Of a DNA stretch of 64,000 nucleotides, positions 3,132-58,020 are shown in pieces. This DNA is from an uncultured Phycisphaeraceae bacterium (GTDB lineage Bacteria; Planctomycetota; Phycisphaerae; Phycisphaerales; Phycisphaeraceae), in assembly GCA_964556215.1 (NCBI GenBank), contig CAZKVP010000003.1:15419-79418 (forward strand), written 5' to 3'. Numbering within the stretch: the first letter of the stretch is position 1; each line of letters begins with the position of its first letter. The position numbers and the translations under genes were made by a program. A model generated the notes under the pieces. The model had not been told where the DNA came from. It worked only from the letters and a program-made list of their open reading frames with translations, and searched no databases.

Positions 3132-4492
3132 GCGAAGTCAAAACAGCGTCCGGCCCGTGGTGGCTCAATTTGAGCCGCCCGCAGATCATGGCCTTTGCCG
3201 TCGCCAGCATGGCTTGGTTTTTTGATTGTTTTGACCAGCAGATTTTCAACCTGGCGCGCATGGATGCGGTCAAGTCGCTGGTGACCGGCGATCAGAATCC
3301 GAAAGTATGGGGCGCTTACACCATGACCACTTTTCTGGTGGGTTGGGGCGTGGGCGGCCTGTGGCTGGGGGCTTTGGGCGACAAGTTGGGCCGCGCCCGC
3401 ATGCTGGCCGCCTGCATCTTCATGTATGCCCTGTTCACCGGGCTGTCCGCCTTTTCCCTCTCAGTGTGGGATTTCTGCGGCTACCGCTTTTTGACCGGCG
3501 TGGGTGTGGGCGGGGTGTTCGGCCTGTCGGTGGCGCTGATCAGCGATGTGATCACGGGCGAGGCCCGCCCCAAGGCTTTGGGATTGTTCCAAGCCTTGTC
3601 GACCATCGGCAACATCAGTGCGGGCCTGATCGGCTTGGGCGTCTCCTGGCTGGTGGCCTCCGGCAAATTGACCCCCACTTGGGGCTGGAAAAGCCTGTTC
3701 CTGGCGGGTGCCATCCCCGCGCTGCTCACCGGCTTTTGGGCTCTGACCCTGCGCGAACCGGCCGCCTGGATTGAAGCCCGCGATTCCGGCAAACTGGCCG
3801 CCGCGCGTGCCGGCTCCTACCGTGCGCTGCTTGGCAATGTGAAATGGCGCAAGAACGCGCTGCTCGCCCTGGCCCTGTGCAGCGTGGGCATCATCGGATT
3901 GTGGGGGTTGGGCAATTTCCATCCCGATATTTTGGACTCGGTGCTGCGCAACAAATTCAAGGGCGACAGCCTGGATGCCAAAGGCATGGAGAGCCAGGTG
4001 AGCCAGGCCAAATCCTTCGCCCTGATGGCGCAGAATTTGGGCGGCTTTATCGGCATGCTGCTGATGACGCAACTGGCCCAGCGCTGGTGCCGCCGCGGCG
4101 CCTTCGCCGTCGGCTTTATATGCGCCTGCGCCGCCACCATGCTGGTATTCAAGGGCCTGCGTTCGTACAACGACATCTGGTGGATGATTCCGCTGATGGG
4201 CGCGGCGCAATATTCGCTGTTTGCCGGCTTTGCCATCTACCTGCCGGAATTGTTCCCCTCGGCCCTGCGCTCCACCGGCACCTCGCTGTGCTACAACGGC
4301 GGCCGCTTTGTGGCGGCCACGGCCCCGTTCACGCTCGGGTTGCTGACCAATTATCTGGGGGAAGGCAAAGCGCCGGCTGAAAAAATCGAGGCTTTCCGCA
4401 CCGTCGGTTTTTGGATGTGCCTGATTTTGCTCGCCGGCCTGTTGGTCCTGCCCTTCCTGCCCGAAACCAAGGGCAAGCCCCTGCCTGAGTGA
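3128..4492 (+). CDS. MFS transporter
   Basis: A GTG at 3128 overlaps the upstream stop (GTGA). Multiple hydrophobic helices and the MFS-like motif GALGDKLGRARML. The listed ORF start at 2957 overlaps the previous gene. Confidence 0.8.
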   Translation: MSEVKTASGPWWLNLSRPQIMAFAVASMAWFFDCFDQQIFNLARMDAVKSLVTGDQNPKVWGAYTMTTFLVGWGVGGLWLGALGDKLGRARMLAACIFMYALFTGLSAFSLSVWDFCGYRFLTGVGVGGVFGLSVALISDVITGEARPKALGLFQALSTIGNISAGLIGLGVSWLVASGKLTPTWGWKSLFLAGAIPALLTGFWALTLREPAAWIEARDSGKLAAARAGSYRALLGNVKWRKNALLALALCSVGIIGLWGLGNFHPDILDSVLRNKFKGDSLDAKGMESQVSQAKSFALMAQNLGGFIGMLLMTQLAQRWCRRGAFAVGFICACAATMLVFKGLRSYNDIWWMIPLMGAAQYSLFAGFAIYLPELFPSALRSTGTSLCYNGGRFVAATAPFTLGLLTNYLGEGKAPAEKIEAFRTVGFWMCLILLAGLLVLPFLPETKGKPLPE

Positions 4493-9324: not shown

Positions 9325-10791
9325 ATGTCGCACAAACCCTGGGAGCACGCCAAGTCCAGCGGCTCCGAAACCAACCCGCTCGCCGCCCGCTTCGTTTCCT
9401 CGCTGGATTACGACAAGCGGCTGTACAAGCACGACATCATGGGTTCGCGCGCGCAGGCCCGCATGCTGGCCACCCAGGGCATCATCACCGAGGCCGACCG
9501 CGACGCCATCCTGGCCGGTCTTGATGAAATCGAAGCGGAAATCACCGCCCAGGGCGATGCTTGGACCGGCTGGAAAATCGAGTTGGAAGATGTCCACATG
9601 TGCGTCGAAGCGGCGCTGGTCGCCAAGACCGGCGACGCCGGGCGCAAGTTGCATACCGGCCGCAGCCGCAACGACCAGGTCGCTTTGGACTTGCGCCTTT
9701 GGTGCCGCGAGGCCGAACAGGAATTGCAAAAGAAATTCTTCGCCCTGGTCAGTGCCTTTGTCGACATGGCCGACCGCTGCGGAAAAGTGGTGATGCCCTC
9801 TTACACCCATTTGCAGCGCGCCCAGCCGATCGTGGCCGGCGCCGAGCTGCTGGCGTGGGCCGATGCCTTTGACCGCTGCGCCCACCGCGCCCACCTGCTC
9901 GGGCAACTCTCCGATGAAAACCCCTTGGGCAGCGGCGCCATCGCCGGCTCCTGCCTGCCATTGGACCGCGACCACACCACCGACGAACTCGGCTTCTCCG
10001 CCACCGGCAAAAACAGCATGGATGGCACCGCCAGCCGCGACGCGGCTCTGGACACCGCTTGGACTCTCTCGATGGCGGCCATGTGGCTGTCGCGCTTTGC
10101 CGAGCAGTGGATCATCTACGCCTCGACCGAGTTCTCATTCATCTCGATGGGTGACGACTACACCACCGGCTCCTCGATGATGCCGCAGAAGCGTAACCCC
10201 GACATGCTGGAACTGATCCGCGGCAAGTCGGGCCAGGCCTACGGCTCGCTGATGGCGCTCCTGACCATGTGCAAAGGCATCACCATCGGCTACAACCGCG
10301 ATTTGCAAGAAGATAAAAAACACCTATTCGCCGCCTACGACTCGGTCTGCGACTCGCTCGACATGGCCGCCGGTCTGGTCAAAACCGCTGCCTTCCGCGA
10401 TGACAAAATCGCCCCCACCATGACCAAAGGCTATCTGGATGCCACCGGCTTGGCTGAGTATTTGGTGGCCAAGGGCATCCCCTTCCGCACCGGCCACCAG
10501 GTGGTGGGTTATCTGGTCCACCTGTGCGACGAAAAGCAGCTGTTTGAACTGAAAAAGCTCACCTTGGCCGATTTCAACGCCGCCTGCGCCAAATACAAAC
10601 TGCCCGAAGTCTGCGCCCCCGACCTCTACGACTGGCTGGGCGCCGACAATGTGGTCAAACGCTACCAAAGCGCCGGCAACGCCGGATTGGCCGGCTTTGA
10701 GGCGCAATTGGAGCACTGGAAGGTGCGCCTGTTTGCGGCCTCGGAGCAGGCTTCGGGCTGCGGATGCTCGGATACCGGGTGCAGCGGGTGA
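9325..10791 (+). CDS. argH: Argininosuccinate lyase
   Basis: Fumarate-lyase signature GSSMMPQKRNPD, plus SRNDQVALDLRLW and YTHLQRAQP. Confidence 0.95.
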   Translation: MSHKPWEHAKSSGSETNPLAARFVSSLDYDKRLYKHDIMGSRAQARMLATQGIITEADRDAILAGLDEIEAEITAQGDAWTGWKIELEDVHMCVEAALVAKTGDAGRKLHTGRSRNDQVALDLRLWCREAEQELQKKFFALVSAFVDMADRCGKVVMPSYTHLQRAQPIVAGAELLAWADAFDRCAHRAHLLGQLSDENPLGSGAIAGSCLPLDRDHTTDELGFSATGKNSMDGTASRDAALDTAWTLSMAAMWLSRFAEQWIIYASTEFSFISMGDDYTTGSSMMPQKRNPDMLELIRGKSGQAYGSLMALLTMCKGITIGYNRDLQEDKKHLFAAYDSVCDSLDMAAGLVKTAAFRDDKIAPTMTKGYLDATGLAEYLVAKGIPFRTGHQVVGYLVHLCDEKQLFELKKLTLADFNAACAKYKLPEVCAPDLYDWLGADNVVKRYQSAGNAGLAGFEAQLEHWKVRLFAASEQASGCGCSDTGCSG

Positions 10792-10817
10792 GAAGGGGAA
10801 AATTGATTCAACACAAG

Positions 10818-10840
10818 CCGCGCGGGAGCGCGGTTTTTTT
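10818..10840 (+). terminator. Intrinsic terminator after argH
   Basis: Hairpin CCGCGC-GGGA-GCGCGG followed by T7. Confidence 0.7.
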
Positions 10841-10842
10841 AC

Positions 10843-10920
10843 AACGAGCCCCGAGCGCAAGCTCGGGGGATGACCACATGATGTGACGCCAATCCCCTGA
10901 GCTTGCGCTCAGGGCTCGTT
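10843..10920. repeat. 78-bp palindromic element, short copy of the element found in queG
   Basis: Terminal inverted repeats AACGAGCC...GGCTCGTT. Two internal 8-bp hairpins, CCCCGAGC-GCAA-GCTCGGGG and CCCTGAGC-TTGC-GCTCAGGG. The ends match 55503..55637. Confidence 0.65.
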
Positions 10921-12541
10921 AAGCACCCAACTTCTCCATCAAAACCTTACGAAAAATATTTAGCGGTGCCGACCTCCCGGTCCATAACGCAAATTGCTCC
11001 GCCGCCTGATGAAGGAACATTTCCGTTCCAGGAATGCAAATACAACCAGCGGCTTTCGCCTGTTTGAGCAGCTTGGTTTCAATCGGGTTATAGACGGTGT
11101 CGAACACCACCACGCCGGGCACAAGTGCGGGATGGTTGTCGGCGAGCGGTGAAGTGTCCACATTGGGCGTCATACCCAAGGGAGTGCAGTTGATCAGCAA
11201 ATCAAACTTCTCGTTTGTTAAAAACTCCATGGGCCTGAATTGAACGTTAAAGACTTCGGCAATTTCTTTTGCACGCTCCTCTGAACGATTAAAAATGACA
11301 ACTTGTTGTTTTTTTCCATCGCCCCGGCCTCCAGAAAATGCGGCTACGGCCGCGCGCGAAGCCCCGCCTGCACCAATCACTGCCACACGCAATTCTTGCT
11401 TTTCCCATTTACTCCAAAATGTTTTTTGAAACCCATCCATCGGGTCTTCACCCAAAGGAGGGGCCATCACATCGTCAATGGCCTCCGAAATACCTCGAAA
11501 ATCCGTGTTCGAAATCATTGGCCCATCTAATGTTGTGGCAGTCCATGTGTTTGCCGCTCCCATGCGTTCAGAAAACTCTTCTACGCATTGTTTCTTCTCC
11601 TTCCCCCACCTCAACAAATTCTCCTTATGCGGAATCGTCACCGAAGCCCCGGAGAAATCCATCCCCTCACACCCGATCCACGCATCCAAATCCCGTGCGA
11701 AATTCTCATACCCCGCCTCAATCCGCATCGGCACATAAACGCCATCGAACTCAACCGCAGAAAACCCCGCATTGTGGATCGCCGGCGACATCGAATGCCC
11801 GACCGGACAACCAATCACGCCGTAGACCTTGGTTTTTTTACCAATCGCATCCCAACGATACAAGTTTTTCATCTCCGCCAACAGCGGCTGCCCCGGCGCG
11901 GTGCCGCTGGCTTGGTCCAAAGCGGCAAAGGTCATGTAAGCGCCGCCTTTTTTGGCCAAAATCCGCGACGGCATGCCCGCCTCGCCCATGGCCAGGGCCA
12001 CGCCCGGCTTGCCGGCACCAGTGCAAACCTTGAGAAAATCCATGGCAATGGCACAATCTTCCAGACCTTGCGCCTTCCACGCCAGCTTCGGCACATCACA
12101 CAGCGGCTCTTCCAGCATCTGCTTTAACCGCTTATCCAGATCCACCGGCCTCCCGTTGAAATCATGCGCTGACAGAATCAACTTCGTCCGGCCCGCCGCC
12201 AGCAAGGGGCCCAGCACCTTGGCCCACTCCGGCTCCGCCCGCCACTTGGCCAACTCCACATCCACGGCCATCGGCGCCTTGGCCGCCGACATCAAGGCCG
12301 CATACAACGCGATGCGCTGCGCTTCCGGACCGTCAAACCCGCCGGTTTCGCACGCATGGCGGCAGGTGACAATGCAGGGCAAGGGTGAATCCGCCACCAC
12401 CGTCTGAACCAAGTCCGGCTGATCCGCCAGGCGATCCACCCGGTATTCCACGGCATCAGCCCCGCCCGCCTTGGCAAGTTGCGCCTTAGCGAGGGCTTGA
12501 TGGGCATTTTCAACGGTGATGGGAACCACAAGGAGCGTCAT
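10919..12541 (-). CDS. aroDE: Bifunctional 3-dehydroquinate dehydratase (type I) / shikimate 5-dehydrogenase
   Basis: The N-terminus LLVVPITVENAHQALAKAQLAKAGGADAVEYRVDRL is DHQase I-like. VYGVIGCPVGHSMSPAIHNAGF, NTDFRG and VIGAGGASRA are AroE-like. Start is taken at the internal ATG at 12541. Confidence 0.85.
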   Translation of the reverse strand: MTLLVVPITVENAHQALAKAQLAKAGGADAVEYRVDRLADQPDLVQTVVADSPLPCIVTCRHACETGGFDGPEAQRIALYAALMSAAKAPMAVDVELAKWRAEPEWAKVLGPLLAAGRTKLILSAHDFNGRPVDLDKRLKQMLEEPLCDVPKLAWKAQGLEDCAIAMDFLKVCTGAGKPGVALAMGEAGMPSRILAKKGGAYMTFAALDQASGTAPGQPLLAEMKNLYRWDAIGKKTKVYGVIGCPVGHSMSPAIHNAGFSAVEFDGVYVPMRIEAGYENFARDLDAWIGCEGMDFSGASVTIPHKENLLRWGKEKKQCVEEFSERMGAANTWTATTLDGPMISNTDFRGISEAIDDVMAPPLGEDPMDGFQKTFWSKWEKQELRVAVIGAGGASRAAVAAFSGGRGDGKKQQVVIFNRSEERAKEIAEVFNVQFRPMEFLTNEKFDLLINCTPLGMTPNVDTSPLADNHPALVPGVVVFDTVYNPIETKLLKQAKAAGCICIPGTEMFLHQAAEQFALWTGRSAPLNIFRKVLMEKLGA

Positions 12542-12580
12542 GCTGCGTAAGGTAGCGACTGGGCGCCGCCTCATCTTATT

Positions 12581-20400: not shown

Positions 20401-21339
20401 ATGTCCGAGTCCCTGCTGCGCCGCAAATCCTACAACTCCGTCGTTGAGACCACCTTTGACACCCCTTTGGTCAAACTCAACCGCATCGCCCCGGCCGGAG
20501 CCCATGTGCTGGTCAAGCTCGAGTTCTTCAACCCGCTGTCCTCAGTCAAGGACCGCATCGGCCGCGCCATGATCGAAGACGCTGAAAAAAGCGGTAAACT
20601 CACCAAGGCCTCGCATATCATCGAGCCCACCTCGGGCAACACCGGCATCGCGCTGGCCTTCGTGGCCGCCGCCAAGGGGTACAAACTGACCCTGACCATG
20701 CCCGAAACCATGAGCATCGAGCGCCGCGCCCTGCTCAAGGCCTTGGGCGCCAACTTGGTGCTGACCCCGGCCGCCGAAGGCATGAAAGGCGCCATCGCCA
20801 AGGCCCTGGCCATGGCCGCCGAAGACGCCAGCGCCTGGGTGCCCCAACAGTTTGAAAACCCGGCCAACCCGGCCGTCCACTATGCCACCACCGGCCCGGA
20901 AATCTGGGCCGACACCCAGGGCAAGATCGACATCCTGGTGGCCGGCGTGGGCACCGGCGGCACCATCACCGGCGCCGGCCGCTTCCTGCGCGAACGCAAC
21001 CCCAACCTGCAAATCATCGCCGTCGAGCCCGAAACCTCGGCGGTCATTTCCGGCGGCAGCCCCGGCCCGCACAAAATCCAAGGTCTCGGCGCCGGCTTCA
21101 TCCCCAAGAATCTGGACACCGCCATCCTGACCGGCACCGAAAATGTCAGCAACGACGACGCCTTCGCCTGGGCCCGCCGTCTGGCCAAAGAAGAAGGCAT
21201 CCTGGGCGGCATCTCGTCGGGCGCCAATGTCTGCGCCGCCGTGCGCCTGGCCGCCGCCAACCCCGGCAAGGTGGTGGTGACGGTCTCGCCGTCGTTTGGC
21301 GAGCGCTACCTCTCCACCCCGCTGTTCCAGGAAGCCTGA
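20401..21339 (+). CDS. cysK: Cysteine synthase A (O-acetylserine sulfhydrylase)
   Basis: Internal ATG follows GGAGG. Motifs [23 protein letters not shown] and [10 protein letters not shown]. The upstream 426 codons of the listed ORF are antisense to the PP2C gene. Confidence 0.9.
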
Positions 21340-21390
21340 ACGCGAACGCGGCGGCCCGCCGCGCATCATGCGATTTAAAACAAAACAACG

Positions 21391-32665: not shown

Positions 32666-32707
32666 GGGGAAAATGCAAAAAGGGAACGGGACTTGGCCCA
32701 AAAGTAG

Positions 32708-32766
32708 CACAGGCTTCAGCCTGTGTCCCCTTCGTGGCGCAAACAGCCCACAGGCTGAAGCCCGTG
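32708..32766 (-). repeat. Two inverted copies of an 18-nt hairpin between argB and argF; possible terminator or attenuator
   Basis: CACAGGC-TTCA-GCCTGTG (32708..32725) and CACAGGC-TGAA-GCCCGTG (32749..32766). On the mRNA strand the distal one is followed by CUACUUUU. Confidence 0.45.
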
Positions 32767-33639
32767 TTACAGCACGATCTCGGTGCCCACGCCGGCGGTG
32801 GTGTACACCTCCAGCAACAGCGCATGCTTGAGGCGGCCGTCGATGATGTGGGTCTTCTTGACGCCGGCTTCCAGCGCCATGATGCTGGCTTCGACCTTGG
32901 GCAGCATGCCGGTGGCGATGATTTTGGCTTCGACCAACTGGTCGATTTGGGCGCGGGTCAGGTGGGTGGCCCAGTCGGTGGGGTCGTCGGATTTGCGGAT
33001 GCCCGGCGTGTCGGAGACCAGCAGCAGTTTCTCGCACTTGAGCGCGGCCGCCACGCCGCCGGCCACCGAGTCGGCGTTGATGTTGAGTTTGGCCCCGGTG
33101 CGGTCGCGGGCGATGGGCGCGATGACGGGGATGTAGCCGGCGTCGCACACCGCTTCGAGCAGCTGGGTGTTGACCCAATCCACCTCGCCGACCATGCCGA
33201 TGTCGATCTTGCGGCCTTCTTCGCCCGAAAGAAACAAGCGCTTGCCGAACACCACGCACGAAGCCAGCGTGTGCAGGCCGACGCACTTGTGGCCGCTGGC
33301 GGCGATGGTCTCAAGGATGTGCTTGTTGACCTCGTTCACCAGCACGTGCTCGGCGATGGCCAGGGTGCGCTCGTCGGTGTAGCGGCGGCCCTGGACGAAC
33401 TGCGACTCCAACCCGGCCTGCGCCATGGCGGCGTTGATGCTCTTGCCCCCGCCGTGCACGATGACGGGGCGGATGCCCACCGAAGCCATGAAGCACACAT
33501 CTTCCACCAGGCTCTTCAAATCCTCGGGCTGGTCCATGATCGATCCGCCGACCTTGACCACCACCCGCTTGCCGGCGAACTGGTGGATGTACTTGCCGGC
33601 CTCGACAAGGGCGGCGGCTTTGCTGATGGCTTCCTGCAT
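32767..33639 (-). CDS. argB: Acetylglutamate kinase
   Basis: Motifs VVVKVGGSIM, VIVHGGG and LNINADSVAGGVAAAL. Confidence 0.9.
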   Translation of the reverse strand: MQEAISKAAALVEAGKYIHQFAGKRVVVKVGGSIMDQPEDLKSLVEDVCFMASVGIRPVIVHGGGKSINAAMAQAGLESQFVQGRRYTDERTLAIAEHVLVNEVNKHILETIAASGHKCVGLHTLASCVVFGKRLFLSGEEGRKIDIGMVGEVDWVNTQLLEAVCDAGYIPVIAPIARDRTGAKLNINADSVAGGVAAALKCEKLLLVSDTPGIRKSDDPTDWATHLTRAQIDQLVEAKIIATGMLPKVEASIMALEAGVKKTHIIDGRLKHALLLEVYTTAGVGTEIVL

Positions 33640-35413: not shown

Positions 35414-36055
35414 ATGTCCGACAACGCCCCCCCACCCGCCCCCTTGTTCCCCGTCATGCTGCGCCTTGAAGGCCAGCCCTGCGTGGTGATCGGCGGGGGC
35501 AAAGTCGCCTTGAGGCGCATCAAATCCCTGCTCGAATGCAAGGCGCAAGTCACGGTCATCGCCCCCGAAGCGGAAACCGAAATCCTGCAACTGGCCGCCA
35601 CCGGCCAACTCGAATGGCTCAAACGCCCCTACCAATGGGGCGACCTTGAAGGTGCTTTCATGGCAATTCTGGCCTCGTCCTCGCCCAAAGCCCACGACAA
35701 GGCCATGGACGAGGCGCAAATGGGCGGCGTGCTGGTCAACCGCACCGACGCTCCCCACCACGGCGACATTGAAGTGCCCGCCCATCGGCGGCGCGGCCTG
35801 CTCACCGTGGCGATCCACACCGGCGGCGCCAGCGCCAGCGCGGCCAAAACCATCCGCGACGAAGTGATGGAAAAACTCAACCCGGACTGGACGGCGTTTT
35901 TGGATGCGCTGTCCATCGTGCGCGAAGAAGTGCAGCGCGATGTGTTCCCGGGGCTGGCGCGGGAAAACTTGCTGCGCACGCTGGGCGGAGATGGAGGCAA
36001 AAACGCCTTCAACGCCGGCGGCCTTGAAGCCCTGCGGGCCTTGGCTAAAAACTGA
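35414..36055 (+). CDS. Precorrin-2 dehydrogenase / sirohydrochlorin ferrochelatase (siroheme synthase N-terminal domain type)
   Basis: FPVMLRLEGQPCVVIGGGKVALRRIKSLLECKAQVTVIAPE. Confidence 0.75.
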   Translation: MSDNAPPPAPLFPVMLRLEGQPCVVIGGGKVALRRIKSLLECKAQVTVIAPEAETEILQLAATGQLEWLKRPYQWGDLEGAFMAILASSSPKAHDKAMDEAQMGGVLVNRTDAPHHGDIEVPAHRRRGLLTVAIHTGGASASAAKTIRDEVMEKLNPDWTAFLDALSIVREEVQRDVFPGLARENLLRTLGGDGGKNAFNAGGLEALRALAKN

Positions 36056-36057
36056 AA

Positions 36058-36103
36058 GTTCCCAAAGAAAAAGCCACCTTCCAGTGGCTTTTTCTTTGGG
36101 AAC
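36058..36103. terminator. Bidirectional terminator, 20-bp perfect stem
   Basis: GTTCCCAAAGAAAAAGCCAC-CTTCCA-GTGGCTTTTTCTTTGGGAAC, between convergent genes. Confidence 0.8.
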
Positions 36104-36112
36104 TTGAGGTTT

Positions 36113-36787
36113 TTATTGGCTGTCTTCGACCTTCTGCACCAGCAGGTATTCCATGTCCACCGGGGTCGCGCGACCGAAGATGGTGACGATGACGCGCACT
36201 TTGCCGTGGATGGCATCCACGCCATCGATGGTGCCTTCCATGCCTTCGAACGGGCCGCCCACCATCTTGACATGGTCGCCGACCTGGAATTCCATGCGGA
36301 TTTCCGCCTGGGTTTCCGGGGGACGCGAGGCAATCAGCATCTTTTCCACTTCTTCGGGACGCATGGCGGTGGGGCGGCCGGCGGTGCCGATGAAGTCACC
36401 CACGCCGCTGGTTTCCTTGACCAGGAAGAAGATGTCCTGCGGGATGCGGCCGTCGCTCTCAAGGCGCATCTCGACGAACACATAGCCGGGGTAGAGTTTT
36501 TCCTCGATGACCTTGGGCTTGCCGTTCTTGATTTCCTTGCGCTTCTCGGTGGGCACCAGCACACGGTTGATCAGGTGCGGATAGTTCTCAATCTTCACCT
36601 TGCGCACCAGGGTGCGCTGGACGGAGGACTCCTTGTTGGAGGCCACGCGCAGCACGAACCAGTTCATGCCCGCACAGGTCTGGGGCTCGCCCTCGGAAGG
36701 CGGCCGCGTGGGGTCTTCAGCCGGCACAAAACCGGCGGGCAGGGAAGGGACCGCGGTGTTGTCGGGGTTTTGCAGGGTGTCGCTCAT
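36113..36787 (-). CDS. nusG: Transcription termination/antitermination factor NusG
   Basis: NGN-like WFVLRVASNKE and LYPGYVFVEM. KOW-like FQVGDHVKMVGGPFEGMEGTI. Confidence 0.9.
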   Translation of the reverse strand: MSDTLQNPDNTAVPSLPAGFVPAEDPTRPPSEGEPQTCAGMNWFVLRVASNKESSVQRTLVRKVKIENYPHLINRVLVPTEKRKEIKNGKPKVIEEKLYPGYVFVEMRLESDGRIPQDIFFLVKETSGVGDFIGTAGRPTAMRPEEVEKMLIASRPPETQAEIRMEFQVGDHVKMVGGPFEGMEGTIDGVDAIHGKVRVIVTIFGRATPVDMEYLLVQKVEDSQ

Positions 36788-49999: not shown

Positions 50000-50111
50000 G
50001 GGATGGGTTCCAGAAGAGGAGGAATATGGAGATGCTAACGCAGGCGATGCAAAAAATGCGGAACTTGCGCCAAAAGTAGACGCGGACGCTGGCCGCGTCC
50101 ACGGGCAACAA

Positions 50112-50158
50112 CCTCAAAAACAACGCGCGCCGCAAAGGGGCGCGCGTTGTTTTTGAGG
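50112..50158. terminator. Terminator after acnA, 20-bp stem
   Basis: CCTCAAAAACAACGCGCGCC-GCAAAGG-GGCGCGCGTTGTTTTTGAGG. It is nested inside a 13-bp outer inverted repeat (50073..50085 and 50184..50196). Confidence 0.7.
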
Positions 50159-50194
50159 CTGTCTTTTCCCACGCGGCGGGCCGCCGCGTCTACT

Positions 50195-53008
<2,814 letters not shown>

Positions 53009-55271: not shown

Positions 55272-56429
55272 ATGCCCCGCCCCGCCGACCGCATCCGTGT
55301 GCTGGCTTCTGCCCAAGGTTTTGCCTTGTTTGGCGTGGCCGAAGTTGCGCCTTCGATGCGCACGGCGGAAATGGCACAATGGATCATCGAGGGCAAGCAT
55401 GGCGAAATGGGTTATTTGGCTGAACATCTCGCCTTGCGCCAGGACCCGCGCGCATTGTTGGAGGGGGCCAAAAGCGTGCTGGTGGTGGCGGATGCGTATG
55501 CCAACGAGCCCCGAGCGCAACCGAGCCGACTTGTCGGCATCAAAGAGGAAATTCCTTTGCGAGTTCCGCAAAGCGAACCTCGGGGGAATGCACAGCCCAA
55601 TGACGCGCATCCCCCGAGCTTGCGCTCAGGGCTCGTTCAAGGCCGCTTCGCCCGCTACGCTTTTGGCAAGGACTATCACGACACCCTGAAAAAACGCCTG
55701 CACGCAATGGCCAACCAGTTGCGCCTGGAATTCCCCGCAGCGCAATTTCGGGTGACGGTGGACACCGCGCCGATTCACGAACGCGAGGTGGCCCTGCGGG
55801 CGGGTCTGGGCTGGATCGGCAAAAACACCCTGCTGCTACACCCGCGCCATGGCTCCTATTTTTTGCTGGGCACTTTGATCACCACGCTGGACTTGGAACC
55901 TTCGCAAAAAATCGAACCCGACCACTGCGCCAACTGCCGCAAGTGCATCGAGGCCTGCCCCACCCAGGCCATCGCGCCGGAGGGCTATTCCCTGGACGCG
56001 CGCCGCTGCATTTCCTACCTCACGCTGGAACACCGCAGCCCGATCGCCCCGGCCCTGTTCGCCGGCATGGGTGATTGGCTGGGCGGCTGCGACATCTGCC
56101 AGGAAGTCTGCCCCTACAACAAAGTCGCCGAAAAAACGCCGCTACCGGTCGGCTTGGGGCACAAACCACGCGCGCAAGTCAAGGATGGCGCCGCCCTGTT
56201 GGATGTGCTGAACTGGACCGAAGACGACCGCCGCCGGGTGTTTCAGACCTCGGCCCTCAAGCGCATGAAATTGGAAATGGTGCAACGCAATGCCCTGATT
56301 GCGGCGGGCAACGCGCTCAAAAAACGCGACTTGCCGCAATTGCGCCTCCGGGTTGCGCAACTGGCGGCGGACGGGGCGGCGCATCCCTTGGTGCGGGAAA
56401 CGGCCAGGGCGGTGATGGCCGCGCCATAG
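55272..56429 (+). CDS. queG: Epoxyqueuosine reductase, carrying a 45-codon in-frame repeat insertion
   Basis: Motifs RYAFGKDYH, GLGWIGKNTLL, CANCRKCIEACPTQAI and CDICQEVCPYN. Confidence 0.85.
   Translation: MPRPADRIRVLASAQGFALFGVAEVAPSMRTAEMAQWIIEGKHGEMGYLAEHLALRQDPRALLEGAKSVLVVADAYANEPRAQPSRLVGIKEEIPLRVPQSEPRGNAQPNDAHPPSLRSGLVQGRFARYAFGKDYHDTLKKRLHAMANQLRLEFPAAQFRVTVDTAPIHEREVALRAGLGWIGKNTLLLHPRHGSYFLLGTLITTLDLEPSQKIEPDHCANCRKCIEACPTQAIAPEGYSLDARRCISYLTLEHRSPIAPALFAGMGDWLGGCDICQEVCPYNKVAEKTPLPVGLGHKPRAQVKDGAALLDVLNWTEDDRRRVFQTSALKRMKLEMVQRNALIAAGNALKKRDLPQLRLRVAQLAADGAAHPLVRETARAVMAAP
55503..55637. repeat. 135-bp palindromic element, long copy, in frame within queG
   Basis: It has the same ends as 10843..10920 plus a 57-bp internal block. 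It spans exactly codons 78-122. Confidence 0.65.
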
Positions 56430-56453: not shown

Positions 56454-57899
56454 ATGGAACTCAACCACCGCGAAAAAAACGTCTCCGTCGCCCGCGAAAA
56501 AGCCATTCTGGTCGGCTGCCTGCTGCCCGACGACGGGCTGGATCCGCACGACCCGCTTGGCGAGCTGGCCTCGCTGGCTGAAACCGCCGGTGCGCAGGTC
56601 GTGGACCGCCTGACCCAACGGCGCATCAAACCCCGCGCCAAAACCTTCATCGGCGAGGGCAAGGTCGAGGAGTTGGCCGAAATGGTGAAATTCCACGGCG
56701 CGCAGGTGGTGCTGTTTGAAAACAACCTGTCCCCCTCGCAATTGTCCAACATCGAGAAGGTGGTCGGGTGCAAGATCCTCGACCGCACGGAACTGATCCT
56801 GGACATCTTCGCCTTCCGCGCCAAAACGCCGGAGGCCAAGTTGCAGGTCGAACTCTCGCAGCTGGTCTACACCTATCCGCGCCTCAAGAGCATGTGGACC
56901 CACCTGGAGCGCCACGCCGGCGGTGTGGGCACCCGCGGCCCGGGCGAACAGCAGTTGGAAACCGACCGCCGCCTGGTGCAGGTCAAGCGCCTGCGCCTGG
57001 AGCGCGAACTGGCCGAAATCGAGGAGCGCAAGAAACGCGAGGTGGAAAACCGCAACAACGAGCATTTCACCGTGGGCATCGTCGGCTACACCAACGCCGG
57101 CAAGAGCACGCTGTTCAACACCCTGACATGCGCCGGCACCTACGCCGATGACAAGTTGTTCGCCACCCTTTCCACCCTGACGCGCAAGTGGAAAATTGCG
57201 GGTGGCGAGTGGGTCGCCCTGTCCGACACCGTCGGCTTCGTGCGCAATCTGCCGCACCGGCTGGTGGCCTCGTTCAAGGCCACGCTGGAAGAGGCCGTGC
57301 ACGCCGACCTGCTCCTGGTCGTGCTGGATGTGGCCGACCGCGATTCCAAAAAGCGCCTCGACACCGTGCTGGAAGTCCTGGAAGACATCGGCGCGGGCAA
57401 GGTTCCGCGCATTTTGGCGCTCAACAAGATCGACGCCGTCGAAAACAACGCCGAACTCCTGATGCTGACGAACCAGTTCAAAGACGCCATCCCGATCTCG
57501 GCCAAGACCGGCCGCGGACTCGACCTGCTGACGGAGGCCGTGGCGCGGCATGCGCGCGGCGCGGACCGGGAACTGGTGCTGGAAATCCCGCTGAATGACG
57601 GCAAAACGCTGCAATACCTCGAAGGCCGCGTGCCCATCCTCGCCCGCGACTACGACGCCGCCGGCCTCGTCAAACTCACCGTGAAGATCGGCGCGCGCCA
57701 ATTGGCGCAGCTCCAGGTGATGGGATCGAAGGCGGTTTGGGAAGGCAAGAAGAACAAGGCGAAACAGGGCTGGGGCGAAGGGGCGGAAAGCAAACCCGGA
57801 ACCCAAGAACCGGAGTCGGAAGCCGGGGACGCCTTGCGCCGCGTGAAAGTCCGGACCCAGCCCAGGGTGAAGGCGGCAAACCGGGAAAACAGGAAGTAG
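56454..57899 (+). CDS. hflX: GTPase HflX, with a basic C-terminal extension
   Basis: Motifs GPGEQQLETDRR, GYTNAGKSTLFN, DTVGF and NKID. Confidence 0.9.
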   Translation: MELNHREKNVSVAREKAILVGCLLPDDGLDPHDPLGELASLAETAGAQVVDRLTQRRIKPRAKTFIGEGKVEELAEMVKFHGAQVVLFENNLSPSQLSNIEKVVGCKILDRTELILDIFAFRAKTPEAKLQVELSQLVYTYPRLKSMWTHLERHAGGVGTRGPGEQQLETDRRLVQVKRLRLERELAEIEERKKREVENRNNEHFTVGIVGYTNAGKSTLFNTLTCAGTYADDKLFATLSTLTRKWKIAGGEWVALSDTVGFVRNLPHRLVASFKATLEEAVHADLLLVVLDVADRDSKKRLDTVLEVLEDIGAGKVPRILALNKIDAVENNAELLMLTNQFKDAIPISAKTGRGLDLLTEAVARHARGADRELVLEIPLNDGKTLQYLEGRVPILARDYDAAGLVKLTVKIGARQLAQLQVMGSKAVWEGKKNKAKQGWGEGAESKPGTQEPESEAGDALRRVKVRTQPRVKAANRENRK

Positions 57900-57906
57900 A
57901 CACGTC

Positions 57907-58020
57907 TTTTTGGAGAACCTATGAAAGCCGGGCCCCCCAGTGGGCGGCACAAAGCAGGAGCGTATCCTGCGAAGGGACTTGCCCGCGAGGGGGGCCCGGC
58001 TTTCATAGGTTCTCCAAAAA
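57907..58020. repeat. 114-nt palindrome: 32-bp perfect arms and a structured 50-nt loop. Probably a bidirectional terminator.
   Basis: TTTTTGGAGAACCTATGAAAGCCGGGCCCCCC ... GGGGGGCCCGGCTTTCATAGGTTCTCCAAAAA. Confidence 0.7.

Follow-up and report, generated by a model that had tools for sequence, protein, structure and literature searches.

Repetitive extragenic palindromes (REPs) are hairpins with 6-9-bp stems and an unpaired GTAG or CGTC foot (Di Nocera 2013, PMC3733652). They are located mostly downstream of genes, are frequent as head-to-head or tail-to-tail dimers with 20-100-bp spacers (variable in the tail-to-tail form), and are only rarely seen as direct tandem arrays. The same survey described REPs inside genes in several species, with most cases in Opitutus terrae, which belongs to the Verrucomicrobia and so to the Planctomycetes-Verrucomicrobia-Chlamydiae (PVC) superphylum, and in Rickettsia conorii, whose intragenic repeats are the Rickettsia palindromic elements RPE-4 and RPE-6, classed as CGTC REPs, tagged CGTC and with A/T in stem positions one and two (PMC3733652). 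Intragenic REPs encode 7-8 amino acids as singles and 20-30 as dimers (PMC3733652, Additional file 3), and their hosts are often repair (uvrA/uvrB) or tRNA-modification genes; REPs are furthermore known targets of further insertions, and many have been argued to act as RNA elements (PMC3733652). Here we describe a 135-bp palindromic element located in a surface loop encoded by queG, the gene for tRNA epoxyqueuosine reductase, of an uncultured Phycisphaeraceae bacterium (contig CAZKVP010000003.1 of assembly GCA_964556215.1), where "the window" denotes the whole stretch of 64,000 nucleotides (64 kb) that was analysed.

The second point of comparison is the class 3 TnpA_Y1 transposases, proteins of ~155-160 aa with a conserved N-terminus and the motifs NHVH, W[TA] and Y----Q (Quentin 2018, PMC6006769). 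They occur mainly in Planctomycetes, and the hairpins that flank their genes, described as "atypical, weaker" structures with a CnGA foot, can be highly repeated in the genome (PMC6006769). The supplement of that study holds no Planctomycetes REP sequences, we found no description of such elements in Phycisphaerae in the literature, and queG is not among the intragenic-REP hosts listed by Di Nocera 2013 (PMC3733652). We consider it quite probable that the queG insert consists of two REP-type hairpin modules, a dimer joined tail-to-tail with the tags outward and resembling bacterial interspersed mosaic elements (BIMEs) or the REP doublets known as REPINs, and that it belongs to a family dispersed through the Phycisphaerae.

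A probable REP-type dimer in the reading frame of queG

The queG product matches the TIGR00276 equivalog of NCBIfam with 295 bits (cut-off 200), the Pfam families PF08331 and PF13484, and the solved QueG structures PDB 5d08/5d6s (E 4e-36). The TIGR00276 match is broken into two pieces around the insert, and the PF08331 profile of 77 positions is stretched over residues 56-165, which places extra residues inside the N-terminal domain of QueG. The initial annotation had assigned the element exactly to codons 78-122 without a stop, and both the coordinates and the open reading frame (ORF) agree: 55503 is base 1 of codon 78, 55637 is the final base of codon 122, and there are 0 stop codons in the gene frame. 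An AlphaFold model built from 66 sequences, with a mean predicted local distance difference test score (pLDDT) of 89.8 and a predicted template modelling score (pTM) of 0.87, renders residues 78-122 as coil of block-mean pLDDT 50-56, flanked by strands 68-75 and 123-126. As the 45-aa segment is also absent from 20 of the 20 QueG orthologues examined, the insert is lineage-specific and, on the model, situated at a point where disorder in the loop is tolerated. Because the domains downstream are intact, queG is probably not a pseudogene. Outside the insert QueG is complete and probably active, and the 45-aa peptide is most likely translated as a passenger without a function of its own.

The ends of the element had been reported to recur in an intergenic relative and to be inverted repeats of each other, and our comparison bears this out. 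The first 18 nt are identical to the 10843 end at 18/18 positions and the last ~27 nt match the opposite end at 26/27, the right-end 22 nt being the same in both copies (0 expected by chance). The 18-mer AACGAGCCCCGAGCGCAA is exact at 10843 and 55503, while its reverse complement stands with 1 mismatch at the two right ends, 10903-10920 and 55620-55637; this amounts to 4 matches versus 0.19 expected, a number reached in 0 of 100 shuffles. Folding of both copies also beats shuffled sequence, at -70.7 kcal/mol (z -7.4) for the queG copy and -59.2 kcal/mol (z -9.6) for the intergenic copy. A scan of 55300-55800 against Rfam returned sub-threshold miRNA-precursor noise only.

The subunits of the queG copy are given in Table 1. 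That it equals the short copy plus 57 bp is correct only approximately: without the block 66 of 79 aligned columns match the intergenic copy, and the spacers of these two window dimers have diverged to partial similarity. The 57-bp block is predicted to fold into the two small hairpins noted initially (GCCGAC-TT-GTCGGC and TTTGCG-AGTTC-CGCAAA), its 3' end AAGCGAA echoes the GAGCGCAA immediately preceding it, and no second copy of it was found in the window or in the 80 genome-scan loci listed. The intergenic dimer is located between convergent argH-like (9325-10791, plus strand) and aroD/aroE-like (10919-12574, minus strand) genes, and the AA of the TAA stop of the latter (10919-10921, minus strand) forms its last two bases. 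On its other side, within the region 10815-10921, the dimer abuts a hairpin that resembles a terminator and belongs to the argH-like gene (GCCGCGC-GGGA-GCGCGGT, then T7, ~10818-10842).

Table 1. Features of the queG locus and its intergenic relative (window positions), and further in-frame copies of the same family (positions within the named loci of the genome scan)
Feature	Position	Strand	Basis
queG (tRNA epoxyqueuosine reductase), host gene	55272-56429	+	ORF list: intact, 385 aa
Probable REP dimer (inverted module pair with outward tags), 135 bp = queG codons 78-122, encodes NEPRAQPSRLVGIKEEIPLRVPQSEPRGNAQPNDAHPPSLRSGLV	55503-55637	.	end matches, fold, inverted-repeat scan
Left module, 5' part: tag AACGAG, 5' stem CCCCGAGC, loop GCAA	55503-55520	+	18/18 identity to 10843-10860 and family consensus
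57-bp unique block, interrupts left module just past the loop	55521-55577	+	read from sequence; fold
Left module, 3' half-stem CCTCGGGGGAAT (consensus GCTCGGGGGAT)	55578-55589	+	alignment to intergenic copy
Spacer between modules, partly like that of the intergenic copy (TGACGC..ATCCCC)	55590-55608	+	alignment
Right module, inverted, ATCCCCCGAGCTTGCGCTCAGGGCTCGTT	55609-55637	-	end matches, module scan
Intergenic REP dimer, same family, 78 bp: 29-nt arms 93% complementary, 20-nt spacer	10843-10920	.	inverted-repeat scan, fold
Dimer in SMC head (SMC_N), peptide ERAPSASSGFDEPGTGKDNPSLRSGLV	L036		GC3-frame test and Pfam
Three tandem modules in Dus-family protein, peptide TSPERKLG x3	L028 5086-5195		GC3-frame test and Pfam
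Singlet in carboxyltransferase (Carboxyl_trans), peptide TSPERKLGS	L062 4006-4030		GC3-frame test and Pfam
Singlet in UvrB C-terminal tail, peptide TSPERKLGP	L007 3908-3932		GC3-frame test and Pfam

A dispersed family of RACGAG hairpin modules

To the two copies in the window, a genome scan with the query AACGAGCCCYGAGCGCAAGCTC, one genome per species, added at least 80 loci in 13 species; the 13 metagenome-assembled genomes (MAGs) all belong to the Phycisphaerae/Planctomycetota, and at least 29 of the loci come from a single MAG. A census of the window and the 80 loci listed, with a cut-off of 5 mismatches or fewer, yielded at least 134 modules of 25 nt, as against a total of 14 matches in a shuffled control at the looser cut-off of 7 mismatches. 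The consensus is RACGAG-CCCYGAGC-GCAA-GCTCRGGG, where position 1 is found as A, G, C or T and positions 2-8 (ACGAGCC) are unchanged in 133-134 of the 134 modules. Each module thus consists of an unpaired 5' foot, (R)ACGAGC(C), a stem of 6-8 bp (CCYGAGC/GCTCRGG) and a GCAA loop, which as G-C-R-A is almost invariant among the 134. The stem varies by compensatory pairing (CG 29, TA 14 and GC 2 at pair 10-23; AT 40 and TA 6 at pair 12-21; CG 48 and GC 3 at pair 9-24) to a degree that only 0-2 of 2000 shuffles reached.

The modules come in several arrangements. In the census set ~40 are singlets, 58 inverted pairs have their feet outward (62-421 bp in total, mode 85), and two loci hold direct tandem arrays, of 3 copies with a 39-bp period (L028 5087-5189) and of 4 copies with a 44-bp period (L050 4432-4589); the 64-kb window itself has two dimers of the family. 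Among the spacers of the dimers 46 of 52 have no relative among the remaining spacers, and in 26 clean dimers the search for a target-site duplication gave chance-level matches at k=1-6. Given the singlets and arrays, the unrelated spacers and the missing target-site duplication, the "terminal inverted repeats" of the element are two copies of an autonomous hairpin module and not the ends of a miniature transposable element with inverted repeats (MITE). A further suggestion, that element lengths are multiples of three, is valid for the 135 bp that keep the frame of queG but is no property of the family: the lengths of the 58 dimers modulo 3 are distributed 19/26/13, with no preference for multiples of three, which makes the 78 bp of the intergenic copy a coincidence.

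Copies inside other genes were called by a codon-position G+C (GC3-frame) test together with Pfam; a test of stop-free spans was dropped because DNA of 63-70% G+C leaves nearly every element open in some frame. The module itself, as read from its sequence, has 0 stop codons in all six frames. The GC3-frame test returned 5 elements with both flanks coding in one continuous frame, queG included, and all five are in frame and stop-free, spacers included. The intragenic elements number ~5 of 91, with ~86 of 91 not read through in frame, which is far under the coding fraction of such genomes and as expected if most genic insertions are lost. The single-module intragenic copies (L007, L062 and L028) share one frame, TSPERKLG, for which chance is ~1 in 36, and this may reflect peptide-level selection or an orientation bias.

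Association with a Y1/HUH transposase

A candidate for the enzyme that moves these modules was found at locus L063 of Phycisphaerales JB054, where the minus-strand gene 2566-2003 encodes a Y1-type protein and has two direct RACGAG modules on its upstream side and a single inverted one on its downstream side, so that members of this one family flank it at both ends. At L055 a decayed N-terminal remnant lies between modules. The L063 product shares 49% identity (E 2e-45) with 160-aa proteins of L080 and L073, and it was through these homologues that its family was assigned. Their genes are flanked by a sister REP of the same architecture and loop, GTAGAGCCCCYCGC-GCAA-GCGRGGGG, the foot of which is the canonical GTAG (GTAGAG).

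The L080 protein matches PF01797 (Y1_Tnp) with 30.1 bits (cut-off 23). A search for homologues gave 1267, of which most of the 120 listed carry PF01797, and the name given to them by JGI is often "REP element-mobilizing transposase RayT". In an alignment of 27 members H91 and H93 (the H-V-H of NHVH), W137, Y158 and Q163 (Y----Q) are invariant, and the alignment profile matches the IS200/IS605 TnpA structures 2ec2, 2f4f, 2a6m, 2vhg and 2xm3. Because the motifs, the length of ~155 aa and the planctomycete host fit the description by Quentin 2018 (PMC6006769), the family is, on these sequence features, "class 3" TnpA_Y1. From the L063 arrangement and the known behaviour of REP-associated tyrosine transposases (RAYTs) and IS200/IS605 enzymes, we infer that a class 3 Y1 enzyme mobilises the RACGAG modules.

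We propose that the modules would spread as single-stranded DNA hairpins by means of this single-copy, RayT-kind Y1/HUH transposase, which, going by its family membership, would cut and rejoin at the hairpin foot and leave no target duplication. A dimer would then have entered the hypervariable QueG loop between two core beta-strands, or have taken the place of an older REP there. There it would persist because its length of 45 codons keeps the frame, because the module is free of stops in whichever frame it is read, and because the loop can presumably tolerate a disordered 45-aa peptide.

The QueG loop as a site of repeated palindromes

The stretch of QueG between the VVADAY strand and GRFARYAxGxDYH is hypervariable: the five closest relatives, at 72-79% identity, have a linker of 15-28 aa, B. 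subtilis QueG one of ~14 aa and the window one of 47 aa. The initial annotation placed the insert in this linker, but the element is the entire linker rather than a guest within it, beginning immediately past DAYA and reaching up to the residue that precedes QGRF. The orthologue most similar to it, P0122 (MAG CAZVNU, 79% identity, gene order as in the window), has at the same place a 28-aa linker that is likewise a strong palindrome (dG -53, z -7.4; L083 ~3229-3312), composed of two copies of a different REP, AAAGTAG-ACGCGGCGGCCCGCCGCGT. This second family recurs in its own MAG (L011, L029 and L051) and twice in our window. A third palindrome, G-rich/C-rich and with a dG of -100, occupies the same linker in P0128 and P0132, and a relative of the P0128 palindrome sits in P0161 (L085 1501-2664) in the loop before the Fe-S domain (dG -56 kcal/mol). 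The in-frame palindromes of P0128 (L084 1501-2742) and P0161, GAGGGGCCGAGGGG... / ...CCCCTTGGCCCCTT, encode peptides of the type GPRGQGAEG...APWPLDPSAPS. Either the QueG loop was colonised repeatedly, or one REP replaced another at the site of a resident REP.

The latter possibility is a variant of the reading we prefer and not opposed to it. It holds that in the ancestor of this clade the QueG loop already contained a palindrome, and that the present dimer took its place by inserting into or beside it, or else through recombination or conversion involving a further copy, without ever entering a native peptide linker. In its favour, the whole linker is filled and the native residues are gone; different palindromes are found at this very place in P0122, P0128 and P0132; the P0123 linker starts GCC AAC GAA CCC, as in the window; and REPs attract further insertions (PMC3733652). 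On the other hand, the P0123-P0126 linkers lack significant structure (z -1.9 to +1.4), and the window element shows no visible remnant of another REP inside it. We regard prior occupancy of the loop as possible but the less likely course of events.

Although speculative, a broader suggestion starts from four observations: across three lineages this one loop holds in-frame dimers from three palindrome families unrelated to each other, a fourth case is in another QueG loop, the RACGAG family is also present in SMC, Dus, carboxyltransferase and UvrB, and its single modules are read in the TSPERKLG frame every time. REP hairpins of Phycisphaerae tied to class 3 Y1 transposases might be a recurrent source of protein loop sequence, implying either site- or structure-directed targeting of hairpin-prone loops during transcription or replication, or selection on the peptide. 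We put this forward tentatively, as more doubtful than the REP-dimer identity of the insert.

Evidence against the REP-dimer reading and alternative explanations

Several observations weigh against the insert being a REP dimer spread by a class 3 enzyme. With regard to the insertion itself, no native linker residues are left in QueG, the event is deduced from orthologues at no more than 79% identity, and an empty site in a near-identical strain was not found, the metagenome scan with the right junction giving 0 matches (with the conserved left coding flank of queG the scan returned 5 unrelated genes). Nor does a REP dimer account for the 57-bp block, the foot is RACGAG and not the canonical GTAG, and the spacers are not conserved, unlike those of a recently copied REPIN. 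With regard to the transposase, there is no class 3 Y1 gene in the 64-kb window, so that the presumed RayT link is drawn from a related genome, and the L063 protein has no match in Pfam or NCBIfam even at E<=10. Its RayT-like ORF has no stop at the usual ...RxQ end, stays open across the module that lies downstream (..CCVPSLRSGLVK..) and enters antisense sequence of the adjacent gene, and may be decaying or extended. Finally, translation of the insert and activity of this QueG are both predictions.

Of the remaining explanations, co-option would make the insert functional, either as an mRNA hairpin that regulates translation or decay of queG or as a peptide with a role in QueG. Among RNA tetraloops, GCAA with a closing C-G pair is a classic stable one. 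The fold calculated for the queG copy is very stable, the frame sharing of the three single-module copies could be read as selection, and REPs in general have been argued to be RNA elements (Di Nocera 2013). Against this, the module is shared by proteins unrelated to each other and is for the most part intergenic, the prediction for the peptide is disorder, and the orthologues do without the segment; we consider co-option improbable.

Two further alternatives we judge highly unlikely. The terminal inverted repeats of 18-29 nt and the length of 78-135 bp would suit a classical MITE, a deletion derivative of an insertion sequence with a DDE transposase; yet the 26 clean dimers lack target-site duplications, each supposed terminal repeat also exists as a singlet and in direct arrays, the interiors are unrelated, and the transposase gene flanked by the modules is of the Y1 and not the DDE kind. 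Just as little speaks for an insert that stays untranslated because it is taken out of the mRNA, or because the ribosome skips it in the manner known from T4 gene 60 and from "byp" elements of mitochondria: the hairpin would bring the flanks together, but the ends of the element have no matching take-off and landing codons, and neither removal nor bypass requires the five intragenic copies to be in frame and stop-free, as they are. A native ancestral linker that resembles the intergenic element by chance, conceivable in so hypervariable a region where any sequence is possible, is refuted by end matches of 18/18 and 26/27 (~0 expected), by the module in 13 other species and by the lack of the segment in all orthologues examined.

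Other palindromes in the window

The two window copies of the AAAGTAG family seen in P0122 differ in form. At 50069-50200 a dimer (AAAGTAG-ACGCGG...CCGCGT, feet outward) has as its spacer a complete bidirectional terminator hairpin, AAAAACAACGCGCGCC-GCAAAGG-GGCGCGCGTTGTTTTT, from which it follows that the spacer of a dimer can be resident DNA. The other, at 21346-21364, is a single ACGCGGCGGCCCGCCGCG palindrome ~7 nt downstream of a TGA (21338-21340) that possibly ends the upstream reading frame. A third REP family, GTAG-CACAGGC-TTCA-GCCTGTG, is represented at 32704-32770 with an inverted partner (GTAA foot) 23 nt off, and no copies beyond those two were found in the window.

Two more inverted repeats are of other kinds. 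Directly 3' of an hflX-like ORF (56454-57899) there is a perfect 32-nt inverted repeat with a 50-nt spacer (57907-58020; TTTTTGGAGAACCTATGAAAGCCGGGCCCCCC / complement), which looks like a different MITE-like or hairpin element. At 36046-36115 A/T-rich arms of 32 nt (TAAAAACTGAAAGTTCCCAAAGAAAAAGCCAC / ...) are 91% complementary around a 6-nt loop, unusually long for a terminator.

Significance

In-frame intragenic REPs are an already published phenomenon, the PVC superphylum included (PMC3733652), and the initial annotation's supposition that such colonisation is undescribed for a PVC-type genome is therefore contradicted by the Opitutus terrae cases. The core of the initial annotation, a mobile palindrome that resides in frame, nevertheless holds. 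What we add is modestly new: the RACGAG family, which is conserved almost identically in 13 species or more, its connection with class 3 enzymes, and the recurrence of three different palindrome families in a single QueG loop. The locus appears to be a well-documented case, from a free-living planctomycete lineage, of REP hairpins translated within conserved enzymes. It also connects a REP family with the class 3 Y1/HUH transposases, a little-studied group for which substrates were so far described only as "atypical", and the repeated presence of different REP families in the same QueG loop indicates that selfish hairpins can create and turn over linker sequence. Annotators should expect REP-encoded peptides (TSPERKLG, PSLRSGLV, NEPRAQ...) in real Phycisphaerae proteins and not take them for frameshifts or assembly errors. 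Were these hairpins truly a recurrent source of loops, the RPE of Rickettsia would have a counterpart, with an identifiable transposase, in free-living bacteria of large genome size.

Comparison with known systems

The RACGAG family resembles REPs and BIMEs in being a short hairpin, rich in G+C, whose unpaired 5' foot is conserved, and in its frequent inverted dimers with variable tail-to-tail spacers and no target-site duplication. Among the loci listed its dispersed copies likewise appear to be located mainly between genes and often at the 3' ends of convergent genes. It departs from them in the foot, which is RACGAG here and GTAG or CGTC there, conserved though of another sequence, and in an invariant GCAA (or GCGA) loop. 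A Y1 gene flanked by its own hairpins is the arrangement of REPtrons (Nunvar 2010; Ton-Hoang 2012), seen here in related genomes and not in the window, but the associated Y1 protein is of class 3 (Y----Q) whereas RAYTs are of class 2 (YxxxNP). A strict REPIN (Bertels & Rainey 2011, PMC3116915) is copied as a whole dimer; here the spacers are not conserved, and with 46/52 of them unrelated we rejected that label. We also rejected an integron attC site, as the flanks misfit the R''/R' core (RYYYAAC ... GTTRRRY), bar a chance fit at 10918-10924, and the copies are dispersed singly and not in cassette arrays.

In-frame colonisation had initially been taken as the hallmark of Rickettsia palindromic elements. 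The likeness to the RPE (Ogata 2000, 2002) stands insofar as these are palindromes residing in frame in genes, surface-exposed and compatible with function, and other housekeeping genes are similarly affected by our family; the module, however, is of REP type. We rejected membership in the RPE family because the module has neither the CGTC tag nor the A/T stem start, its stem beginning C-C instead, a comparison made with the definition of RPE-4/6 and not with RPE sequences; the sequences are not visibly alike. For CGTC REPs a dedicated transposase is not known, whereas the RACGAG family flanks a Y1 gene. The closest precedent for the queG insert is the intragenic REPs of Opitutus terrae, which are likewise in frame, in housekeeping hosts and in a genome of the PVC superphylum, but which belong to other REP families; our host is of the class Phycisphaerae, and it is the additional 57-bp block that makes our insert, at 45 aa, the longer one. 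For the transposase the precedent is the class 3 group (PMC6006769), in the description of which Phycisphaerae and intragenic copies are unmentioned; in contrast to the hairpins reported there, those of the present family have an ACGAG foot (GTAGAG in the sister family) and are strong.

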